DNA of 64,000 bases from a virus (IMGVR_UViG_3300028025_004880), one strand, 5' to 3'. Shown: positions 51,278 to 64,000, numbered from the stretch's first letter. Translations and numbers: made by a program. The notes: generated from the sequence alone by a model not told the origin.

Positions 51278-51306
51278 TTTACAATAATTGACTTTTCAGG
51301 TATAAT
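51278..51306 (+). promoter_or_regulatory. sigma70-type promoter (TTTACA-17-TATAAT) upstream of uvsY
   Basis: TTTACA at 51278-51283, 17-nt spacer, TATAAT at 51301-51306. GGAG RBS and ATG at 51331. Confidence 0.5.
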
Positions 51307-54525: not shown

Positions 54526-55599
54526 ATGAAGACTGCGATTATAACCGATCAGCATTTCGGCGCACGTAATGACTCATTGGTTTTTCTATCTTACTATGAG
54601 AAGTTTTATAATGATGTGTTCTTTCCTAAGTTAAAAGAGGAAGGCATCACAACATTACTAATCCTTGGTGATACATTTGATCGCCGTAAGTATGTAAATT
54701 TCTTCACACTCAAGAAAACAAAGCAGATGTTTTTTGATAGGTTGGAAGAAATGGGCATAACTGTTTATATGCTTGCAGGCAATCATGACACTTACTTTAA
54801 AAACACCAATGATGTAAACTCAGTTGACTTATTATTAGCTGAATACACTAATGTCAATGTTATCGATACACCACAAACTATCCACTTAGATTACGGCAAC
54901 ACTGCTGCTGATGTTTGCATGGTTCCTTGGATTTGTGCCGATAACTATGAAAGAGCAATAGATGAGATGACTAACACAAGCGCACATTTGTGTATGGGTC
55001 ACTTTGAGATTGCTGGATTTGCTATGTATCGTGGTATGGAAAGTCATGAAGGTCTAGATCCGTCTCTCTTTAAAAAGTTCGACAAGACTTTCAGCGGACA
55101 TTACCATCACCGCAGTAGTAAAGATAATATCACTTATCTAGGAAACCCATATGAACTTACATGGCAGGATTACAACGATCCTCGTGGTTTCCATATTTTT
55201 GATGTAAACAGTCAAGAATTGACATTCATTCAAAACCCCTATACTATGTTCGATCGTTATGAATATGATGACAGCACTACAGAAGCAGAAACACTTGACG
55301 TAAGTAGATTCGCTGAAAAGTTTGTCAAGATTATTGTTGTAAACAAAGCAGACTTTTACAAGTTTGACAAATTCCTCTCAAGAGTATATACTAATAATCC
55401 TCCACCGTATGAAGTAAAAATTATTGAAGATTTTTCTGCTTTTAACGAAGGAGAAGTATCTTCTGAAATTAATCTTGAAGATACGCAAACAGTATTAAGC
55501 GAATACATCGATTCAATTGAAACTGATCTTGACAAAGAAAAAATCAAAACCTTTGTCAAAACACTTTATACGGAAGCAATTAATATAGAGGTGGTATAA
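54526..55599 (+). CDS. gp47: recombination endonuclease subunit gp47 (Mre11/SbcD-like)
   Basis: Calcineurin-like phosphoesterase motifs: ITDQHFG (D-x-H), LGDTFDRR (GD-x-x-D), AGNHD (GNHD), GHFE (GH). Confidence 0.85.
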   Translation: MKTAIITDQHFGARNDSLVFLSYYEKFYNDVFFPKLKEEGITTLLILGDTFDRRKYVNFFTLKKTKQMFFDRLEEMGITVYMLAGNHDTYFKNTNDVNSVDLLLAEYTNVNVIDTPQTIHLDYGNTAADVCMVPWICADNYERAIDEMTNTSAHLCMGHFEIAGFAMYRGMESHEGLDPSLFKKFDKTFSGHYHHRSSKDNITYLGNPYELTWQDYNDPRGFHIFDVNSQELTFIQNPYTMFDRYEYDDSTTEAETLDVSRFAEKFVKIIVVNKADFYKFDKFLSRVYTNNPPPYEVKIIEDFSAFNEGEVSSEINLEDTQTVLSEYIDSIETDLDKEKIKTFVKTLYTEAINIEVV

Positions 55600-55889
55600 T
55601 GCGACAACTTGAGATTCAGTATTTTTATCCTTTGACGGAACAGATTCCACTTGAGTTAGATTATACTGAATGCGTCAAACCTAAAATGTGGACTACCATT
55701 GATTCAGGATTGACGTTGACACTATCTAATAGTGTTGTTGGAACAGTGGGTATGTCAAATAATCTTGGTAACCCATCCTTTACTATTAATGTTGATGCTA
55801 CACCGATTACTATTGTGTCAAAAAAGAAACCCAACTTTGTGAAGAAATTCATTTATAAATCGTTGGGTATGAAATGGAAGAGTGAATGA
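55599..55889 (+). CDS. hypothetical protein (96 aa) between gp47 and gp46
   Basis: ORF coupled to its neighbours by ATAATG and ATGA overlaps. Confidence 0.4.
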   Translation: MRQLEIQYFYPLTEQIPLELDYTECVKPKMWTTIDSGLTLTLSNSVVGTVGMSNNLGNPSFTINVDATPITIVSKKKPNFVKKFIYKSLGMKWKSE

Positions 55890-57598
55890 TTTTACTAAAA
55901 AGCGTACAGTGGAAAAACTTCTTATCAACTGGTAACTCCGAAAATAAAGTCCTATTAAACAGATCGCCTTCAACATTGATTGTTGGAAAAAATGGCGAAG
56001 GTAAATCTACTATACTTGATGCCCTGTGTTTTGGTCTTTTCGGTAAACCATTTCGTAATGTAAATAAGAACCAATTAATCAACAGTATAAATTTAAAAAA
56101 CACTGTTGTTGAAATTGAGTTTAGCGTTGGATCAACTGAGTATAAAATAATTCGTGGTATCAAACCAAATATCTTTGAGATCTATCAAGCATCTACTTTA
56201 CTCAATCAAGACTCTGCATCAAAAGATTATCAAAAAATCCTTGAACAGCAGATCCTAAAATTAAACTATAAAACATTCACTCAAGTAGTCATATTGGGGA
56301 GCGCATCGTTTGTTCCTTTTATGCAACTACCATCGACACAGCGCAAGGATGTGATTGAAGATATTTTGGATATTCGTATCTTCTCAACAATGAACACGCT
56401 ACTAAAAGACAAAGCATCTAAATCTAAGATGGAGTTGATAAACGTAGATAGTGCTATCGCAAAATCAAGAGTGGAAGTTGAGTCTCAACAGAAACTCATT
56501 AAGACGCTGGTTCAGTCTAAACAAGAATATCTGTTGTCAGTGCAACAAAAGATTACATCTAACAATGATCAGATAGCCAAGATTTCTTTAGATATCAGCG
56601 CAACAAATGAAAAGATCAAAACTCTTCGCGATAGCATAGCTGATTGTACTCAGGTTGAAGAAGGTATCGAAAAGTTGCTCAATTCTTTGAATAGAAAAAA
56701 AGAAAAGAACTCTGAGATTGTTACAAACATAGACTTCTTTGAGAGCAATGATAATTGTCCATCATGCGCACAAAATATACCGCATGAGCATAAGCAATCT
56801 ATCGTTGAAACTATGCGTAACGAAACCCAAAACAATAAAGAATTTATTGAGAAAGTGGATACTGCTCTTTCTGGGATGCGCCAACGTATGGCTGAGATCA
56901 AAAAAGTTCAAGATGAAATTATGAAACTTACAACTGAGGTTTCTTCATTCAACTCATCGATTACCTTGTTAAACACACAGAACTCATCATACCAAACCGA
57001 GATAACAGGTGCCAACGAAAACACATCAAACATCGATGAGGAAAAGACTAAGTTAAAACAACTTGCTTCCACAGCACTTGAAAACATAGAGTTGAAAACA
57101 GCCATCTTAGAACAAAGAAATCTAGAAGAAGTTGCAGCAACATTGTTGAAAGACACTGGTATTAAAACTGCAATCATTCGTGAGTATTTACCTGCGATGA
57201 ATAAGATGATCAACATGTATTTACAAGCGATGGACTTCTTTGTGCACTTTGAACTTGATGAATCCTTTAATGAAATTATCAAGTCACGCTATCGCGATGA
57301 GTTTACCTATGCAAGTTTCTCTGAAGGTGAGAAAATGCGTATCGATCTTGCGATCTTATTCACTTGGCGCCAAATCGCTAAGATGAAGAACTCTGTCAAC
57401 ACAAACTTACTTGTGCTTGATGAGATCTTCGATTCATCCCTTGACGCATCGGGAACTGACTACTTCCTCAATGTCATGACACATCTGGGCGAAAACACCA
57501 ACACTTTCGTCATCAGCCACAAAGGCGACCAGCTCTTCGATAAATTCCGTAACGTAATCAAATTCGAAAAACGAAACGACTTCTCAGTTATCGTTTGA
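55886..57598 (+). CDS. gp46: recombination endonuclease subunit gp46 (Rad50/SbcC-like ABC ATPase)
   Basis: N-terminal Walker A LIVGKNGEGKSTILDALCFGLFG, a central coiled-coil with a CPSC zinc hook (NDNCPSCAQN), C-terminal signature FSEGEKMRIDLAILF and Walker B/D-loop LLVLDEIFDSSLD. Confidence 0.9.
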   Translation: MILLKSVQWKNFLSTGNSENKVLLNRSPSTLIVGKNGEGKSTILDALCFGLFGKPFRNVNKNQLINSINLKNTVVEIEFSVGSTEYKIIRGIKPNIFEIYQASTLLNQDSASKDYQKILEQQILKLNYKTFTQVVILGSASFVPFMQLPSTQRKDVIEDILDIRIFSTMNTLLKDKASKSKMELINVDSAIAKSRVEVESQQKLIKTLVQSKQEYLLSVQQKITSNNDQIAKISLDISATNEKIKTLRDSIADCTQVEEGIEKLLNSLNRKKEKNSEIVTNIDFFESNDNCPSCAQNIPHEHKQSIVETMRNETQNNKEFIEKVDTALSGMRQRMAEIKKVQDEIMKLTTEVSSFNSSITLLNTQNSSYQTEITGANENTSNIDEEKTKLKQLASTALENIELKTAILEQRNLEEVAATLLKDTGIKTAIIREYLPAMNKMINMYLQAMDFFVHFELDESFNEIIKSRYRDEFTYASFSEGEKMRIDLAILFTWRQIAKMKNSVNTNLLVLDEIFDSSLDASGTDYFLNVMTHLGENTNTFVISHKGDQLFDKFRNVIKFEKRNDFSVIV

Positions 57599-57623
57599 CA
57601 TTAATTTGGAAATAAGGTATAAT
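57595..57623 (+). promoter_or_regulatory. sigma70-type early promoter cassette P1 (TTGACA-17-TATAAT)
   Basis: TTGACA at 57595-57600 overlapping the gp46 stop codon, 17-nt spacer TTAATTTGGAAATAAGG, TATAAT at 57618-57623. GGAG RBS and ATG at 57646. Confidence 0.65.
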
Positions 57624-57645
57624 TGTCTTTTCAATGGAGATAACT

Positions 57646-57792
57646 ATGCCTATTTTTGAGACCGACTTAGATTATATAGAATTCTTAGACTTCTTAGCTA
57701 CCCTCTCGGTAGAGGGGGAAACCTTTGAAATTTGTCTTAATGCTCTAAAACTTCAAACAGCGCTACAAGAGTGTTACGGTAAACCCCTATGA
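57646..57792 (+). CDS. small early protein (48 aa)
   Basis: ATG with a GGAG RBS 7 nt upstream, directly downstream of P1. Translation MPIFETDLDYIEFLDFLATLSVEGETFEICLNALKLQTALQECYGKPL. Followed by an 8-bp GC hairpin (AACCCCTA...TAGGGGTT, 57782-57803). Below the 60-aa track threshold. Confidence 0.35.
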   Translation: MPIFETDLDYIEFLDFLATLSVEGETFEICLNALKLQTALQECYGKPL

Positions 57793-57838
57793 TCTTAGGG
57801 GTTAAAATCCCCTTTAAAATCAACGACTTACAAAGTGC

Positions 57839-57867
57839 TTTACTTTAATTCAGCTTTCATGTATAAT
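57839..57867 (+). promoter_or_regulatory. sigma70-type early promoter cassette P2 (TTTACT-17-TATAAT)
   Basis: AAGTGCTTTACTTTAATTC shares the AAGTGCTTgACtTTAATT core of P4/P6. TATAAT at 57862-57867. AGGAG RBS and ATG at 57894. Confidence 0.5.
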
Positions 57868-57893
57868 TATGTTATATTATGAAGGAGTTGACT

Positions 57894-58055
57894 ATGAATG
57901 AGCAATGGGAGTCTTTTACTGACAACGAACTGTATATCCTCTGTTTTGGATATGGTATTGAATCTGAGTGCGTTATGCTTGGATCTCGTCTGATGAATCG
58001 CGGACACGTAGAACTTGTGTTGACGAACTTCGAACGTGATTTGGCTTTCGCTTGA
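57894..58055 (+). CDS. small early protein (53 aa)
   Basis: AGGAG RBS then ATG. MNEQWESFTDNELYILCFGYGIESECVMLGSRLMNRGHVELVLTNFERDLAFA. Its stop codon is embedded in the -35 of the next promoter. Confidence 0.35.
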   Translation: MNEQWESFTDNELYILCFGYGIESECVMLGSRLMNRGHVELVLTNFERDLAFA

Positions 58056-58080
58056 CATTAATTCAAGGATCAGGTATAAT
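58052..58080 (+). promoter_or_regulatory. sigma70-type early promoter cassette P3 (TTGACA-17-TATAAT)
   Basis: TTGACA at 58052-58057, spacer TTAATTCAAGGATCAGG, TATAAT at 58075-58080. Near-identical to P6 (61889..). ATG at 58087 is only 7 nt downstream, so the mRNA may be leaderless. Confidence 0.65.
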
Positions 58081-58086
58081 TATATT

Positions 58087-60354
58087 ATGAATACACACTT
58101 TAACTCAAAAGACCTATTGGCAAAACTTCTTGCCACCGAAAACCTTACGGTGCTTCGGGCACCTGTTCGTACCGCATGTTTTGACGTCGAGTCAAGAACA
58201 TTGACGCTACCGCAATGGAAAGAAATGTCCAATGAGGTGGAAGAAATGCTCATCGGTCATGAGGTAGGACATGCCTTGTTTACAACTAATGAGTACATCA
58301 AAGCCGAAACCTATACACGTTCTTTTCATGGTTACATGAATGTTTGTGAAGATGTTCGCATTGAAAAGAAAATTAAAAACAAGTATCCAGGTCTCCGTCG
58401 CACCTTTATCCAAGGATACAAAGAACTCAACGAAAAAGATTTCTTTGACATCGCAGGTAAAGACCTCACCAAAATTTTATTGATCGATAAAATAAATCTA
58501 TATTTTAAATGTGGCATCAACTGTGGTGTTCGTTTTACACCTGCTGAAATGGATCTAGTCCGTAAGGTTGAGCGCACAGATACCATGGCTGATGTTTATG
58601 ATATCGCCAACGAAATCTATACCTACGAAAAGGGTGAGCGCAAAAAGCGTCGCCAAGAAATGCGTGAAGCACGCAAACTTCTTAACTTGGATGCTGAAGA
58701 TGCCAAGGAAGAACAAGAAGAACTAGAGGAAATGCTCAATCAAGAATATGATGATGAAGCACTTGACGATGATGAATTAGATGACTATGATGAGGGCGAC
58801 ACCTCAGAAGAATCTAGCGATTCTGATTCTGAAGAATCATCTGCAACTCCTCCGTCTTCAGCAGGTGATCCATGGCTCGACAAAGATGAAGAGAAAAAAG
58901 AACCAGAAATAACTGAAGACGATGAAATTAAGTCACACACTGATGACGCATTTTATCGCAGAGTTGAAGAATATGCTGACACAGATACGGAAGTCCATAT
59001 CTATGAACCCAAGATTTTTGATAACATCTATACTGATACAGTTATTGGATACAAACGTGTTATCGCAGAACTATCGGCAGGTCGTGTTCAACGTGATATT
59101 CGCTACTATACTTCAGCTGAAGGTGTTTTTGATAAAGCAAGCCAAGCAAAGGCACTCGCCAGACACAATTCAAATGTTGAGAAATATAAATCAGAAAATT
59201 CTCGTGTTGTGAATTATCTTGTAAAAGAGTTTGAAATGCGTAAATCTGCCACTCAATATAAGAGAACGCAGACAGCGAAGATCGGACAATTGAATACAAG
59301 CAAACTTGCAGTTTACCAACTCACCGATGACCTATTCCGTCGCATACAAATTGTGCCTGATGCTAAAAATCACGGTATGATGTTTTTGCTTGACTGGTCA
59401 GGTTCTATGATGGAATGTATCGAAGATACTCTGAAGCAAGTTATCAGTCTTGCTACTTTCTGTCAACGTGCCATGATCCCATATCAAGTATTCGCATTCT
59501 CAAACGACTATGAAACTTCTTCACGTAGAGATCGCAAATTCTACTCTAGGGAAGAAGTCAAAGCGATGGGTGCGGGAAGACAGTTTATTGCTTGTGGTGG
59601 TTTTAACTTGATCGAGTTGTTTAGCAACAAGATGACAACAAGCGAATTTAATCAGCAAGTTTCTCTCATGCTTGACTCACCATGGCATCTAGATAGGAAC
59701 TATGGACTAGGTGCTACGCCATTGAACGAAGCATTATTGTATATGATTGAAACACAAATCAGCAAGTTTATGCGTGCGAATAATGTTGAAAAATTCTCGT
59801 TCATTACATTGACAGATGGTCAAGGTAGTGGCTTACAAACTGCGGATCGCGAACATCTCTATGACTCACGCTACGACTACGATACACATAAAAACATAAA
59901 AGTTAAAAACTACATGCGTGATCCAATCACTCATCGTGAGTATGCTCTTACTCGCCACAATAACACATCTGTTCTTTTACAAATTATTAAAGACAGATAT
60001 AATTGCTCAGTTGTTGGCTTCCACGTGTTGAGGAATAGCAAACGAAATGTTCAACAATTCCTTGACGATAATGTGTTTTCGGGTAATGAGTCATCTTCAG
60101 ATTGGGCACGGAAACATATTATGATGGATGAGATTCGTGTTGATTTGCGCAAAGAAGGTTTCTACAGTCTTACTGAAACTTCTCATGATGAACTATTCCT
60201 CATCTCCCAAACTAAACTCTCAATCGATGAGGGCGAACTTGAAGTCAAAGACAATATGAACTCCAAAGCGATTGCAAAGCAGTTTGAGAAGTATATGAAT
60301 GTGAAGAAAACCAGTCGTATCCTGTTGAACCGATTTGTGGGGTTGGTGGCTTAA
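58087..60354 (+). CDS. HExxH metallopeptidase-like N-domain + acidic linker + C-terminal von Willebrand factor A (vWA) domain protein. Resembles the DUF2201-type vWA partner of MoxR ATPases and is CobT-like in role
   Basis: HEVGH zincin motif at 58258-58272. Asp/Glu/Ser-rich low-complexity tract at about 58650-58960. vWA MIDAS motif LLDWSGSM (D-x-S-x-S) at 59388-59408. The track ORF from 58036 starts with TTG inside the upstream gene; the ATG at 58087 follows promoter P3. A MoxR-type AAA+ gene lies one gene downstream. Confidence 0.7.
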   Translation: MNTHFNSKDLLAKLLATENLTVLRAPVRTACFDVESRTLTLPQWKEMSNEVEEMLIGHEVGHALFTTNEYIKAETYTRSFHGYMNVCEDVRIEKKIKNKYPGLRRTFIQGYKELNEKDFFDIAGKDLTKILLIDKINLYFKCGINCGVRFTPAEMDLVRKVERTDTMADVYDIANEIYTYEKGERKKRRQEMREARKLLNLDAEDAKEEQEELEEMLNQEYDDEALDDDELDDYDEGDTSEESSDSDSEESSATPPSSAGDPWLDKDEEKKEPEITEDDEIKSHTDDAFYRRVEEYADTDTEVHIYEPKIFDNIYTDTVIGYKRVIAELSAGRVQRDIRYYTSAEGVFDKASQAKALARHNSNVEKYKSENSRVVNYLVKEFEMRKSATQYKRTQTAKIGQLNTSKLAVYQLTDDLFRRIQIVPDAKNHGMMFLLDWSGSMMECIEDTLKQVISLATFCQRAMIPYQVFAFSNDYETSSRRDRKFYSREEVKAMGAGRQFIACGGFNLIELFSNKMTTSEFNQQVSLMLDSPWHLDRNYGLGATPLNEALLYMIETQISKFMRANNVEKFSFITLTDGQGSGLQTADREHLYDSRYDYDTHKNIKVKNYMRDPITHREYALTRHNNTSVLLQIIKDRYNCSVVGFHVLRNSKRNVQQFLDDNVFSGNESSSDWARKHIMMDEIRVDLRKEGFYSLTETSHDELFLISQTKLSIDEGELEVKDNMNSKAIAKQFEKYMNVKKTSRILLNRFVGLVA

Positions 60355-60386
60355 TTAAACCCCTACTGTTGGTAGGGTTATTGATT
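60355..60386 (+). terminator. hairpin / probable intrinsic terminator after the vWA gene
   Basis: CCCTAC-TGTTG-GTAGGG (6-bp GC stem) followed by TTATTGATT, immediately before promoter P4. Confidence 0.4.
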
Positions 60387-60393
60387 AAAGTGC

Positions 60394-60422
60394 TTGACTT
60401 TAATTTGGAAATAAGATATAAT
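60394..60422 (+). promoter_or_regulatory. sigma70-type early promoter cassette P4 (TTGACT-17-TATAAT)
   Basis: AAAGTGCTTGACTTTAATTTGGAAATAAGATATAAT is near-identical to P1 over about 30 nt. TATAAT at 60417-60422. ATG at 60455. Confidence 0.65.
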
Positions 60423-60454
60423 AGTCTTATGATAATTGAAAGGGAATTTATATT

Positions 60455-60661
60455 ATGTTAGCATATTGCGATTACATGGCAAAAGTCATTAATGAGTCTT
60501 TGAAAAAAGACGCCCATGTCTACGGAACTTTCGTGGATTCAGTGGGTAAAATAAATTGGGATCTTGGTGAGAATGGTGAATTCCTTTCTACGAAGAAAAC
60601 GATGACTGTCGTTGACAGAAATGGGAAAAATTATATTGTAACTGTCCAAGAAATGATTTGA
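60455..60661 (+). CDS. small early protein (68 aa)
   Basis: ORF downstream of P4 with an AGGGA RBS. Its stop codon lies inside the -35 of P5. Confidence 0.5.
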   Translation: MLAYCDYMAKVINESLKKDAHVYGTFVDSVGKINWDLGENGEFLSTKKTMTVVDRNGKNYIVTVQEMI

Positions 60662-60686
60662 CATTAATTCTTGTATGGGGTATAAT
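60658..60686 (+). promoter_or_regulatory. sigma70-type early promoter cassette P5 (TTGACA-17-TATAAT)
   Basis: TTGACA at 60658-60663, spacer TTAATTCTTGTATGGGG, TATAAT at 60681-60686. GGAG RBS and ATG at 60720. Confidence 0.65.
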
Positions 60687-60719
60687 TTATATATGTGTTC
60701 TTTATTATGAATGGAGTGA

Positions 60720-61892
60720 ATGATGGCTAAAATTACTGAAGCCCAAATGATCGAGTTTGAAAATAAACTCAAGGAGATGTTTCCCGATGTCGCAACCAAC
60801 GGCACTGTCTCACGGAAAGAACTAATGGCTGTTCGTGATGAAGTTGGTGTTACATGGTATCCGACATGGTTGATGCAAACACAACTAAGTCGTGGTCTAT
60901 ATGCGATTCCTGGTGGATCTATTACAGCACCTGTAACAGACATTAGCAAATGGGATGCGCCTATTAAACAAAAGACGGAGTCTTACGTGGTTGATTTTAC
61001 AAATACTGATTCGTTAATCCCAAAGATCGACGGGAACTATGTTCCTTTCGGTAACCACAAAGATCTTGAACAAATTTGCGCAGCCAAGATATTCTATCCT
61101 GCATATATCTCAGGTCCAACTGGGAATGGCAAATCAACAACGATTGAACAAATTTGCGCCAAGCAAAGACGTGCGCTTATTCGTATCAACTTGAACACCA
61201 TGACTGATGAAGATCAGCTTATCGGAACTAAGACCCTCTTGAATGGCAACGTGGAGATTGTTGAAGGACCAGTGCTAATCGCTATGCGTACAGGATCTGT
61301 ATTGCTACTAGACGAGATTGACGCTGGCTCAGCAAACACTCTGTTGTGCCTACAACCAATTCTTGAGGGCAAACCCTATTACTTCAAACTTAAGAATGAA
61401 ATGATCATCCCTGCTCCTGGATTCACTGTGTTCGCTACGGCAAACACAAAGGGTAAGGGTAGCGATGATGGTCGTTACATCGGTACAAACGTCCTCAACG
61501 AAGCGTTTTTAGAGCGATTTGCGGTTACTTTCAACCAAGAGTACCCTGATGCAAAGGTCGAAAAACGGATCATTATGAACCTCATGAAGACTTACAATGC
61601 GGTTGATGAGGACTTTGCCGATAACATGGTCAAGTGGGCAGACGCTATCCGTCGCACCTTTGACGCTGGTGGCGTAGATGAAACTATCACTACACGTCGC
61701 CTCATCCATATCGTTCGTGCCTTCTCTATTTTCAAGACCCCAAAGAAGGCTATTGAACTCTGTACAAACCGATTTGACGACTCTACAAGGATCGCCTTCA
61801 ACGATTTGTTCGATAAGGTTTCAAGTGGTGAGTTGCAAGTTGAGGAAACACCTCCACAGGCGACCCCAGTGGAGCCTGTTGCAAGTGCTTGA
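60720..61892 (+). CDS. cobS: MoxR-family AAA+ ATPase (CobS-like) with an extra N-terminal domain of about 70 aa
   Basis: Walker A ISGPTGNGKSTT at about 61112-61140. Walker B VLLLDEIDAG at about 61291-61320. ...FATANTKG sensor region. Single AAA+ module of MoxR/CobS size (390 aa). Adjacent to a vWA protein. Confidence 0.85.
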   Translation: MMAKITEAQMIEFENKLKEMFPDVATNGTVSRKELMAVRDEVGVTWYPTWLMQTQLSRGLYAIPGGSITAPVTDISKWDAPIKQKTESYVVDFTNTDSLIPKIDGNYVPFGNHKDLEQICAAKIFYPAYISGPTGNGKSTTIEQICAKQRRALIRINLNTMTDEDQLIGTKTLLNGNVEIVEGPVLIAMRTGSVLLLDEIDAGSANTLLCLQPILEGKPYYFKLKNEMIIPAPGFTVFATANTKGKGSDDGRYIGTNVLNEAFLERFAVTFNQEYPDAKVEKRIIMNLMKTYNAVDEDFADNMVKWADAIRRTFDAGGVDETITTRRLIHIVRAFSIFKTPKKAIELCTNRFDDSTRIAFNDLFDKVSSGELQVEETPPQATPVEPVASA

Positions 61893-61917
61893 CTTTAATT
61901 CAAAAATCAGGTATAAT
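61889..61917 (+). promoter_or_regulatory. sigma70-type early promoter cassette P6 (TTGACT-17-TATAAT)
   Basis: CAAGTGCTTGACTTTAATTCAAAAATCAGGTATAATTATAT is a near-copy of P3. The -35 overlaps the MoxR stop codon. AGGAG RBS and ATG at 61965. Confidence 0.65.
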
Positions 61918-61964
61918 TATATGGTAGTCTTGAAAAACACACTTAACACACAGGAGTTTATATT

Positions 61965-62318
61965 ATGTTGAAATACAGTGATCTTACAAAAGGGCAAAAG
62001 CGTTGTATCGATGCGTTCATCGCTCGTCGTCCCGAACTAGCTACAGCTGACACAATGACCACCAAGGAAGTTTACAACCTTTGGAACGAGATTTATGCTC
62101 AGCGTGGTCAAGGTGGCGCCAAAGTTGGTTACCCAAATTGGCTTCCGAAATACAATCAAGTACAACGTGGCTTGGTTTACTTTCCAGGTCCAAACTCTAC
62201 AGGCGAAAAGTCTGCGCTTGAGAAGTCTAAACTTCAAAAGATTATCAATGACAGTGAGTCAACAGTCAGCGATGATGAGTTCGAAGCAGAGTTGCGAGCA
62301 AACGGAATTCAAGTTTAA
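61965..62318 (+). CDS. hypothetical early protein (117 aa) carrying a copy of the domain found at the N-terminus of the MoxR ATPase
   Basis: TKEVYNLWNEI...KVGYPNWLPKYNQVQRGLVYFPGP matches SRKELMAVRDEV-GVTWYPTWLMQTQLSRGLYAIPGG at 60812-60920. Confidence 0.55.
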   Translation: MLKYSDLTKGQKRCIDAFIARRPELATADTMTTKEVYNLWNEIYAQRGQGGAKVGYPNWLPKYNQVQRGLVYFPGPNSTGEKSALEKSKLQKIINDSESTVSDDEFEAELRANGIQV

Positions 62319-62333
62319 TACTTGAGTCTTTGT

Positions 62334-62369
62334 GGGGATGATAACTGCCATCGTCATCCCCATTTTTTT
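62334..62369 (+). terminator. rho-independent terminator
   Basis: GGGGATGA-(12-nt loop)-TCATCCCC followed by ATTTTTTT. Directly after the 61965 gene stop. Confidence 0.7.
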
Positions 62370-62383
62370 GAAGATGGCGTTAT

Positions 62384-62656
62384 ATGGAGTATTTAAACAT
62401 GTCTAAAAAAGATCTTCTTTTGAAACATCTACAAGCTGGCAAAGCATTTACTGCGAAGCAAATTACTGCTTCTTTCGGTATCGCTAACCCTGCTCGTCAC
62501 GTGCAAGTTTTGCGCGAACAAGGTTACTGTGTATACAGCAACCCTTCTAAGTTGAGCAACGGATCTGTTGCTACCAAGTATCGTATCGGCACACCAAGTC
62601 GCCGTATCGTTGCTTTGGCACAACAAATCGTTGGGGCGACTGCCTTTACACGATAA
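62384..62656 (+). CDS. small DNA-binding protein with a helix-turn-helix / winged-helix motif (90 aa; start possibly at 62399)
   Basis: LLLKHLQAGKAFTAKQITASFGIANPARHVQVLREQGYCV has the helix-turn-helix pattern (hydrophobic helix, G, recognition helix). GGAG lies 9 nt upstream of the internal ATG at 62399. The gene is bracketed by two terminators. Confidence 0.5.
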   Translation: MEYLNMSKKDLLLKHLQAGKAFTAKQITASFGIANPARHVQVLREQGYCVYSNPSKLSNGSVATKYRIGTPSRRIVALAQQIVGATAFTR

Positions 62657-62666
62657 GTGTAATACA

Positions 62667-62700
62667 ACTGAGCATTCTTCCGAGTGCTCAGTTTTGTTTT
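62667..62700 (+). terminator. rho-independent terminator
   Basis: ACTGAGCATTC-TTCC-GAGTGCTCAGT (stem about 12 bp with one wobble) followed by TTTGTTTT. Confidence 0.7.
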
Positions 62701-62717
62701 CATTTGGAGTAGTATAA

Positions 62718-62936
62718 TTGCTTTCATTACGATGGATTACCACATGGCTGTATATACTTGGGGGTTCGCTTTTAATCTTACTTGATACACCAATATGGAT
62801 ATGGGCATTTTTGAGCGCACATTTTATACTACTTTTCCTATCGATTAATATGCGTGATGTTAGATTGAAGATACAATACACTTTTCTAGTAGTTGTAGAC
62901 TTCTTTGTTATTGTCCACTTGTTTATTTTGAGGTGA
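62718..62936 (+). CDS. small hydrophobic membrane protein (72 aa), TTG start
   Basis: Two predicted transmembrane stretches (ITTWLYILGGSLLILL; IWIWAFLSAHFILLFLSI). GGAG RBS 8 nt upstream of the TTG. No in-frame ATG. Confidence 0.35.
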   Translation: MLSLRWITTWLYILGGSLLILLDTPIWIWAFLSAHFILLFLSINMRDVRLKIQYTFLVVVDFFVIVHLFILR

Positions 62937-62940
62937 CGTC

Positions 62941-63273
62941 TTGAACGATAAAGTTAAATTATCACAAACAGCTACTACGGGTGGCAGAAAATTTGATGGT
63001 GGTAAGCTACAATATGGCTTACTACCTCCACTTGCTCTAAAGGCAACTGTAGAGATTCTAACATTTGGTGCGGAGAAATACGAACCAGATAATTGGAAAC
63101 ATGTTCCAGATTCTAAGCGTAGGTACTTTGATGCTATGCAAAGACATCTATGGGCATGGAAAGAGGGCGAGCAAAATGATCCCGAAACTGGGAAGAACCA
63201 TTTGGCTCACGCAATGTGTTGTTTGATGTTTCTATATGAGCATGATATAAAATATAGTTTGGAGAAGAAATGA
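62941..63273 (+). CDS. conserved phage protein (110 aa), TTG start; resembles the N-terminal domain of phage dATP/dGTP-diphosphohydrolase-like proteins (uncertain)
   Basis: GGRKFDGGKLQYGLLPPLALKATVEILTFGAEKYEPDNWKHV is a motif I associate with a phage DUF family (K..D.GK...L.P......A.VL.FGA.KY...NW). GAGGTGA RBS before the TTG. Confidence 0.4.
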   Translation: MNDKVKLSQTATTGGRKFDGGKLQYGLLPPLALKATVEILTFGAEKYEPDNWKHVPDSKRRYFDAMQRHLWAWKEGEQNDPETGKNHLAHAMCCLMFLYEHDIKYSLEKK

Positions 63274-63446
63274 TTAAAATCGTAGCAGTTTTTCTTTTTG
63301 TGTTTGCTCTTTTCTACTTTGGTATCGAAGCATTTAATCGAAAGACCAATGTTGAGAAATGGGATGTCGCTAAAACATTCTCTTACAGTTTAGCATTGGC
63401 GCTGGCTGTTGTTGTATTTCTTGTTAGTATCGTTGTTTTATTTTAA
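63270..63446 (+). CDS. small membrane protein (58 aa)
   Basis: ATGA overlap with the upstream stop. MIKIVAVFLFVFALFYFGIEAF...LALALAVVVFLVSIVVLF gives two transmembrane helices. Below the track threshold. Confidence 0.35.
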   Translation: MIKIVAVFLFVFALFYFGIEAFNRKTNVEKWDVAKTFSYSLALALAVVVFLVSIVVLF

Positions 63447-63455
63447 GGATTTTAA

Positions 63456-64000
63456 ATGAAAAAAGTTTTTACACTTTCTATCTTGGCTGCTGCTATTCTT
63501 GCCAGTGGGTGTACTCGTATTGAGACAGGCGAAGTTGGTTTGCGTCGTGGCTTCGACAAGCAAGTTAAGACAGAAGAATTGCTTCCTGGCTCATTCAACC
63601 AAGTTATCATTGGTGAAGTTTTGACTTTCCCAGTGAAAGAAATCTCTGTCAAGGTTGAAGACATGACTCCATTGGCTAAAGATAACAGCACAATGAAAGA
63701 CTTCGACACATTGGTTACGTATAACATTAATCAAGCGCAGGTCGCCGAGATTTATAATGCCAAGAATCGTAGCTTCCATGCTATTCATAATGGTGATGTT
63801 TACTTGATGTATAACTATATCTTCAATGCTTCACGTAATGCCATCTACAAAGCTGCACGTAAGTATGAAGCATTAGAAATGGGCGATGCTCGTCAAGCCA
63901 TGGAAACTGAAATTAAAGAACAGATTATTAAAACATTGGCTGATGAAAAGCTGGATGGAACCATTGTTATCGGACAGGTTCTAATCCGCAATATCGTGCC
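63456..64000 (+). CDS. lipoprotein with an SPFH (Band-7 / HflK-HflC / prohibitin-like) domain; C-terminus beyond the window end
   Basis: Signal peptide and lipobox MKKVFTLSILAAAILASGC. SPFH-type N-terminal signature TRIETGEVGLRRGFDKQV...LLPGSFNQVIIGEVLTFPVKE, then coiled-coil-like KYEALEMGDARQAMETEIKEQI. ORF is open to position 64000. Confidence 0.6.
   Translation, partial: MKKVFTLSILAAAILASGCTRIETGEVGLRRGFDKQVKTEELLPGSFNQVIIGEVLTFPVKEISVKVEDMTPLAKDNSTMKDFDTLVTYNINQAQVAEIYNAKNRSFHAIHNGDVYLMYNYIFNASRNAIYKAARKYEALEMGDARQAMETEIKEQIIKTLADEKLDGTIVIGQVLIRNIV

Follow-up and report, generated by a model that had tools for sequence, protein, structure and literature searches.

Towards its 3' end, the viral DNA stretch IMGVR_UViG_3300028025_004880, analysed here as a window of 64,000 nucleotides, encodes a 755-amino-acid (aa) protein with a predicted zincin-fold domain and a von Willebrand factor A (vWA) domain (58087..60354, + strand), which we call the adaptor, and a CobS-like AAA+ ATPase (60720..61892, + strand). 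These two proteins are a phage version of the CobS-CobT AAA+ motor-adaptor pair. They correspond to the known 'peptidase + cobS' core pair of the Kyanoviridae, which has already been described twice, and the object studied here is a divergent member of that family from an uncultured T4-like lineage, situated inside a recombination and replication block. As to function, we tentatively favour, at a little short of an even chance, the combined proposal that the pair is an early, CobN-independent, ATP-driven machine acting on a protein client that belongs to the replication or nucleotide-metabolism programme and is cut at the adaptor's zincin site.

The ATPase, which is 390 aa long when read from 60720 and 389 aa from 60723, carries a Walker A (GPTGNGKS) and a Walker B motif (LLLDEID) in its translation and matches Pfam AAA_5 (E-value 1.7e-15) and CbbQ_C. 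Together with its match to CobS, this bears out the first-pass annotation of this DNA, which had named a MoxR/CobS-type ATPase as the partner of the vWA protein, and as the gene adjoins one encoding a vWA domain with a MIDAS (metal ion-dependent adhesion site), the two make up a MoxR-vWA gene pair. Residues 90-369 align with residues 30-315 of Brucella CobS (9ujv; 7e-27), while the best-scoring solved relatives are the AAA domains of midasin (2e-47), with NorQ and CbbQ matching too; among viral families, phrog_249, labelled 'porphyrin biosynthesis', is matched at 1.7e-100. The invariant columns G132, G135, G137, K138, D198, E199, T240, N242, R266 and R326 probably represent the Walker, sensor and arginine motifs. 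Against the CobS equivalog model TIGR01650, however, the protein scores 101.7 bits versus a cutoff of 558.55, and Pfam finds in it no CobS_N motif (PF12556), which is present in Sinorhizobium CobS. The place of CobS_N is taken by an unrelated N-terminal extension of about 90 residues (about aa 1-95, 60720..61004, +, as delimited by alignments), which is absent from cellular CobS and common to the ATPases of Pelagibacter phage HTVC008M and cyanophage S-RIM50.

Part of this extension is present a second time in the region, as the first-pass annotation had noticed when it described a duplicated small domain. Residues 22-77 of the ATPase align with the 117-aa product of the open reading frame (ORF) at 61965..62318 (+) with an E-value of 2e-5 within the window, and of 2.5e-6 against a relative's copy; this free-standing paralogue of the extension lies directly 3' of the ATPase gene in four related lineages. 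YPxWL and RGxY motifs are conserved in the family formed by the extension and the 117-aa protein. A calmodulin EF-hand was considered for this family following a marginal profile match to calmodulin's first EF-hand in the PDB (ATPase aa 10-46, 60720-60860; E = 0.015) and was rejected, the loop residues not being conserved; that the domain has a winged-helix fold is a guess.

For the adaptor, a 756-aa protein with an HEVGH motif, an acidic tract and a DWSGS motif had been annotated; translation confirmed all three features and gives a length of 755 aa. The protein matches phrog_459, labelled 'peptidase', from end to end (2.5e-180). Its N-terminal domain (aa 1-220, 58087..58746, +) is modelled as a zincin fold made up of a helix, three strands and a helical bundle, with a predicted local distance difference test score (pLDDT) of 85 when the domain was modelled alone with AF2, and the fold also matches ArdC and CapP. 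HEVGH occupies aa 58-62 (58258..58272, +), and a putative third ligand falls within an EDVRIE motif at aa 88-93 (58348-58365, +). The domain gives way to an acidic linker of about aa 200-275 (58684..58911, +), the acidic tract itself setting in near aa 190 and consisting of 50% Asp/Glu. Further downstream are a conserved segment with the motif G-x-L-N-x-x-K-L (aa 391-428, 59257..59370, +), which is predicted to be disordered yet has many invariant columns, and the vWA domain (59371..60354, +), in which DWSGS at aa 436-440 (59392-59406) contributes to a MIDAS formed by D436, S438, S440, T544 and D577. An AlphaFold model of the full-length protein (pLDDT 72.9) has an alpha/beta C-terminal half, and its pLDDT drops below 50 in the disordered stretches at aa 222-273 and 391-426. 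Searched with Foldseek, the C-terminal half retrieved vWA domains from the PDB, including the MIDAS domain of MDN1 and the vWA domain of NorD, in agreement with the vWA domain previously placed there. H58, E59, H62 and E88 are invariant in the family alignments, as are the five MIDAS residues, and among 266 full-length relatives HExxH is retained in 263, an N..ED.RIE-type motif in 258 and DxSxS in all 266. By its motifs, HExxH with a putative third ligand throughout, the family is a candidate for active zincin metallopeptidases.

Standard profile libraries do not recognise this protein. Pfam gave no match at E-values up to 0.1, DUF2201, CobT and peptidase families included, so the DUF2201 match (PF13203 / PF09967) expected by the first-pass annotation was not obtained; NCBIfam gave none at E-values up to 1, and the curated thresholds of PF06213, PF11775 and TIGR01651 were not reached, with no match at all to these three. 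Searching PDB sequences with phmmer and with the family profile returned low-complexity noise only and no CobT chain. A profile search of a 1.84-billion-protein set delimited the family to 5252 clusters, and the best 150 matches listed are all close relatives, with no bridge to cellular CobT among them. Structure comparison with the viral models of BFVD led further: after close relatives, the adaptor matches the N-terminal parts of proteins named CobT. In sequence, the link comes from a bridge alignment of four SSU5/pHCM2-type phage-plasmid proteins with Sinorhizobium CobT (Pfam CobT 1e-96), to which hhalign relates the phage family with a probability of 97.8% (E = 7.8e-13) over a helix, the segment preceding the vWA domain and the first vWA strands. 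For the N-domains only, the probability is 93.9% (E = 1.6e-7), with HEVGH placed on HEVAH and NVxEDVRIE on NALEDxFIER. Compared with one cellular CobT alone, the family reaches a probability of only 15%, significance being attained only with the small CobT-family alignment. These profile alignments indicate homology to the CobT family for each of the adaptor's two halves.

The architecture is likewise that of CobT. According to a preprint on the Brucella CobSTN complex (bioRxiv 10.64898/2026.07.21.739949), the N-domain of CobT resembles peptidase M48C, with a helix, three strands and eight helices, and leads, through a disordered linker roughly 90 residues long, to a vWA domain containing a MIDAS, the pre-vWA 'shaft' entering the CobS ring. 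Since an M48C-like N-domain, an acidic linker and a vWA domain are all found in cellular CobT, the labels 'peptidase-vWA protein' and 'CobT' do not exclude each other. Each of these elements has its counterpart in the adaptor, in the form of a predicted zincin-fold N-domain, a disordered acidic linker, and a shaft with a MIDAS-bearing vWA domain. Residues 391-428, which align with the shaft region of CobT and carry a G-x-L-N/D-x-x-K/R-L motif that also occurs in pHCM2 and in cellular CobT, are read as the putative shaft. The ATPase, for its part, aligns with CobS including the C-terminal helices.

By tblastn, the adaptor gene occurs in 464 phage records; for the cyanophage groups (365 Synechococcus, 61 Cyanophage and 24 Prochlorococcus records, 450 in total), identical counts were obtained with the ATPase gene. 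HTVC008M and S-RIM50 keep the order gp47-gp46-adaptor-ATPase-...-gp45. cobS has been listed among cyanophage core genes since 2010 (PMC3037559); the pair was later named viral cobST, in a study that reported it from viruses whose hosts belong to eight orders and proposed that host CobN is hijacked (PMC8651126), and cobS and cobT are both listed for pelagimyophages (PMC7029224). A MoxR ATPase and a vWA protein with an N-terminal metallopeptidase domain were independently reported from group 2.2 jumbo phages and assigned a proposed role in virion assembly (PMC7824862), while the function of cyanophage cobS has been stated to be unknown (PMC9983427). Our literature search found no experimental tests of phage cobS or cobT. 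The present copy shares with the Kyanoviridae pairs the phrog_459 and phrog_249 families, the slot between gp46 and gp45, conserved HEVGH and DWSGS motifs, and 33-35% (adaptor) or about 45% (ATPase) identity; what sets the clade of the window apart is the additional 117-aa protein paralogous to the ATPase N-domain and, in part of its members, an SPFH cassette. Megablast found no DNA-level match to this region among 50,697 phage records, and the closest cultured gp46, that of Methylophilales phage Melnitz, is 49% identical.

Homology to CobS and the CobT family raises the possibility that the two are auxiliary metabolic genes, whose products would dock on host CobN and drive cobalt insertion into the corrin ring, so that more (pseudo)cobalamin would be available to B12-dependent enzymes of the host while it is infected. 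The three-part adaptor with its shaft and MIDAS, as seen in the CobSTN structures, fits such a role, as do the status of the pair as a core feature of cyanomyoviruses (PMC3037559) and the argument of PMC8651126 that many prokaryotes have cobN without cobS and cobT. Several observations speak against it. Neither protein comes near the CobS or CobT equivalog threshold, the adaptor lacks a Pfam CobT match, and the ATPase has a different N-terminal domain in place of CobS_N. HExxH, strongly conserved in the phage adaptors, is absent from the two cellular CobTs examined, those of Brucella and Sinorhizobium. Neither cobN nor any other cobalamin gene was found in the window region or in eleven related loci, and Rfam searches of the region at permissive E-values revealed no cobalamin riboswitch, only sub-threshold snoRNA noise. 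In addition, the pair is present in elements of E. coli, Y. pestis, V. cholerae and SAR11, which are not known to possess CobN or the aerobic B12 pathway. On balance we regard a cobalt-inserting role as unlikely, though with a real share of the probability. The first-pass annotation had accepted that its interpretation would fall if the protein were an ordinary CobT subunit without a peptidase fold, conserved only together with cobalamin genes. One part of that description applies, since the profile alignments identify a CobT homologue; the rest does not, as the HExxH motif is intact, Pfam and NCBIfam are silent, and in the loci examined the gene is never found beside cobalamin genes. Because the curated thresholds are missed, HExxH is kept, the ATPase has an additional N-domain and the neighbours are replication genes, it is reasonable to conclude that the two are probably not ordinary cobaltochelatase subunits.

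The replication context extends well beyond the window. Following gp47 (54526-55599, Metallophos) and gp46 (55886-57598, SMC_N), all plausible genes between 57590 and the window end are on the + strand, and the pairing of adaptor and ATPase genes is kept in all 11 of the related loci fetched, with replication genes as neighbours. Kyanoviridae have the pair between gp46/47 and gp45/44/62. Elsewhere it adjoins dnaE in pHCM2 and in E. coli and Acinetobacter phage-plasmids, a primase gene in Vibrio phage ICP2, genes for a ligase and dnaE in Pseudomonas phage nickie, and genes for RepC and Pol III alpha in a Rhizobium phage. Like the window pair, these have the adaptor-then-ATPase order, an extended ATPase N-terminus and, in most copies, an acidic linker, a DxSGS MIDAS motif and HExxH, the last of which was found in phage-plasmids of E. 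coli, Klebsiella and Salmonella, in the Rhizobium phage and in ICP2. In the pHCM2-type phage-plasmids, the gene directly upstream of that for an AAA ATPase specifies a 720-aa protein scoring above the Pfam CobT (5e-38) and CobT_C (3.5e-114) thresholds; the window adaptor passes neither, and its link to the phage-plasmid type is seen only by profile-profile comparison. A tblastn search of plasmids with the window adaptor gave no matches, and phmmer with the pHCM2 N-domain against the PDB gave nothing useful. Relatives of the CobS-like ATPase (about 28% identity) were seen on 4450 plasmids, among which 2818 are classed as conjugative, and Pfam-type CobT-like partners on only 1031, mostly non-mobilizable phage-plasmids of about 100-115 kb; the ATPases of conjugative plasmids must therefore have another partner or none.

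Expression signals point to an early phase of infection. Within the 64-kb window, nine sites fit TTGACA-N17-TATAAT with at most one mismatch, where 1.19 would be expected and none of 100 shuffled sequences reached nine, and five of the nine lie in the region downstream of gp46, at 57595, 58052, 60394, 60658 and 61889, with the common extended form TTGACWTTAATT-N9-RRTATAAT. With a variant at 57839 these make six near-consensus sites on the + strand, the number of sigma70-type promoters that had been annotated. Three of them, at 57595..57623 (P1), 58052..58080 (P3) and 60658..60686 (P5), match the consensus at 12 of 12 positions, two others, at 60394..60422 (P4) and 61889..61917 (P6), at 11 of 12, and the variant at 57839..57867 (P2), recognised by reading the sequence, has the form TTTACT-17-TATAAT and shares a TTAATT extension. 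The adaptor and ATPase genes each have a near-consensus promoter of their own. The extended motif recurs in four relatives (L008 and L013-L015), where it lies upstream of the ATPase gene, as P5 does, in L008, L013 and L014, and the homologue of the 117-aa gene, as P6 does, in L008 and L015. As these relatives share only 44-52% adaptor identity with the window, its retention marks the promoters as real, conserved and early-type. As the -10 hexamer of P3 ends only 6 nt 5' of the ATG of the 755-aa gene, RNA started at this promoter would have little or no leader. A TTATATT sequence stands directly 5' of the listed ATG of the genes at 54526, 57879, 58087, 60455 and 61965, and a looser, seventh copy of the extended consensus occurs at 51278-51306, upstream of the UvsY/UvsW block.

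Early-type promoters, a conserved intact zincin motif, the spread of the pair across unrelated mobile elements and the fold matches to ArdC and CapP would all suit a host-takeover or anti-defence machine that, at an early stage of infection, recognises an immunity or housekeeping complex of the host and dismantles or cleaves it. Such a role sits less well with the rest of the evidence. PADLOC returned no match for the adaptor and two weak generic AAA matches, with E-values above 0.002, for the ATPase; the neighbours are replication genes rather than known anti-defence genes; and in the Kyanoviridae the pair belongs to a strictly conserved, single-copy, syntenic core, whereas counter-defence genes are usually variable and located in accessory islands (PMC9983427). 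We consider this explanation improbable. Still less probable, to the point of being a minor possibility, is a virion-assembly chaperone, in which the MoxR-vWA pair with its peptidase domain would aid the assembly and proteolytic maturation of structural proteins. For the jumbo phages that share the fusion architecture this role has been proposed by analogy with the MoxR-vWA system of ATV (Acidianus two-tailed virus), shown to serve tail development (PMC7824862). Against it, the genes considered here have early sigma70-type promoters and a position between gp46 and gp45, outside the late structural block, which takes up most of the window upstream; in phage-plasmids and small podoviruses the pair is accompanied by replication genes; and the phage has a prohead protease of its own (Peptidase_S77, encoded on the same contig).

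For the CobN-independent machine that we favour, the cryo-EM structures of Brucella CobST suggest by analogy how it might operate. The ATPase would form a hexameric ring, the N-domain of the adaptor would dock on the C-terminal helical subdomain of the ATPase, and the shaft (aa 391-428) would be inserted into the ring pore. The free MIDAS face could then hold a client through an acidic side chain, so that ATP hydrolysis, by moving the adaptor, would remodel the client. That client would be a protein rather than CobN with its corrin substrate, most likely a component of host or phage replication or nucleotide metabolism. Through its HExxH...E zinc site the adaptor might also cleave the client, or itself, and targeting or regulation may be the task of the ATPase's N-terminal extension and of the free-standing 117-aa protein paralogous to it. 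Comparable mechanics are known from midasin/Rea1 and NorQ-NorD, in which an AAA_5 ring moves a MIDAS domain and the client is gripped via an acidic residue. Neither of these has a zincin domain, however; midasin is one giant chain acting on ribosome assembly factors, and NorQ-NorD serves iron insertion into nitric oxide reductase. The M48, minigluzincin, ArdC, IrrE and SprT zincins, on the other side, are only 7-15% identical to the phage domain, which matches no Pfam peptidase family and stands apart from them by its fusion with a vWA domain and by its AAA+ motor partner.

This proposal has to be set against several facts that tell the other way. The nearest characterised relatives of the pair are cobaltochelatase subunits, and the marine cyanobacteria, the largest host group, are reported to have CobN but no CobST of their own (PMC8651126, citing Antonov 2020), so that cobalt insertion would fit most known carriers. 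Degenerate forms of HExxH are present in three of the 266 relatives, in Pseudomonas phage nickie and in an Acinetobacter phage-plasmid, where the sequence is QEVAK, and catalysis is therefore not universally required. The model of the full-length adaptor is only of moderate quality, and the linkage to replication genes may reflect nothing other than membership of an early/middle transcription block. A more far-reaching combined claim, which we put forward as conceivable though on the unlikely side, is that CobT-like proteins of mobile elements are working ATP-coupled metalloproteases, in which a CobS-like ring feeds or positions a MIDAS-held client and the HExxH domain cuts it, and which are needed to start or sustain phage and phage-plasmid replication. 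Cellular CobT would then be a derived, peptidase-inactive form, and cyanophage cobS would be unrelated to vitamin B12.

The genes that follow the pair fall into two groups. Four related lineages (44-52% adaptor identity) share the order adaptor, ATPase, 117-160-aa protein, HTH_39 protein, dGTP_diPhyd_N protein and then gp45. The annotated helix-turn-helix gene is identified as the fourth of these, a winged-helix HTH_39 protein of 90 aa (62384..62656, +; 85 aa from 62399) that is kept in relatives and, following cobS, in HTVC008M. The next encodes a stand-alone dGTP_diPhyd_N protein of 110 aa (62941..63273, +), the whole of which consists of that domain (PF18909, 1.7e-35); the PHROG families that it matches disagree in their labels (pyrophosphohydrolase; 'endolysin; inhibits RNA polymerase'). 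Beyond it lie a gene for a hydrophobic protein of 58 aa (63270..63446, +), probably a membrane protein, which co-occurs with a Band_7 gene, and that gene itself, cut by the window end (63456..64000, +; 269 aa in full), whose LASGC lipobox and Band_7/SPFH match (1.4e-10) substantiate the SPFH lipoprotein that had been annotated. This cassette, situated before gp45 (15184-16599 in L005), was found in three of five lineages, the window's own and two others, and is absent from two in which gp45 follows directly. Of the functional link that had been suggested for the flanking genes, what stands is the conserved neighbourhood of the 117-aa, HTH_39 and dGTP_diPhyd_N genes in all four lineages; for the 58-aa/SPFH cassette, missing from two of five lineages, a link to the pair is unlikely. 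On the window's own contig, the SPFH cassette is followed by a DUF454 gene on the opposite strand.

The region downstream of gp46 contains 10-11 ORFs rather than the nine counted before, with products of 48, 53, 755, 68, 389/390, 117, 85/90, 72 (doubtful, with a TTG start), 110 and 58 aa in addition to the Band_7 gene truncated by the window end. Gene calls on identical public contigs give products of 48, 53, 755, 68, 389, 117, 85, 110, 58 and 269 aa, and correct four earlier start codons to 57646, 57894, 60723 and 62399. The first small ORF (57646..57792, +; 48 aa, with an alternative ATG at 57634) has no family match. The second (57894..58055, +; 53 aa, or 58 aa from 57879) has homologues in the relatives L014 and L015, and its longer form (57879-58055) gave a sub-threshold match to Effector-associated domain 7 (PF19960, E = 0.036, 14.3 bits versus a cutoff of 32) that is probably due to chance. 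The 68-aa ORF between adaptor and ATPase genes (60455..60661, +) also lacks a family match and was found only in the same phage. Between gp47 and gp46, overlapping both, is a 96-aa ORF without a family match (55599-55889), and a small ORF takes the same position in most relatives and in S-RIM50. Among the three hairpin terminators previously reported, that at 62666-62693 (+) is strong and resembles an intrinsic terminator, with a 12-bp stem, -21.2 kcal/mol and a z-score of -7.4; the other two are moderate (60361-60377, +, after the 755-aa gene; z -2.4) and weak (near 57797; z -1.3). No tRNAs were found in the region.

Few auxiliary metabolic genes of marine cyanophages are cited as often as cobS, which also serves as a marker of myo-cyanophage populations. 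For the window itself, our analysis mostly supplies the correct annotation of a module that was already known, here in a phage lineage that has not been cultured. The conservation of HExxH, the extra domain of the motor and the linkage to replication genes, taken together with the CobSTN structures of 2026, nevertheless turn the label 'porphyrin biosynthesis' into specific, testable predictions. Should the two proteins not form a chelatase, ecological work that treats viral cobS as B12 metabolism would have to be reinterpreted.

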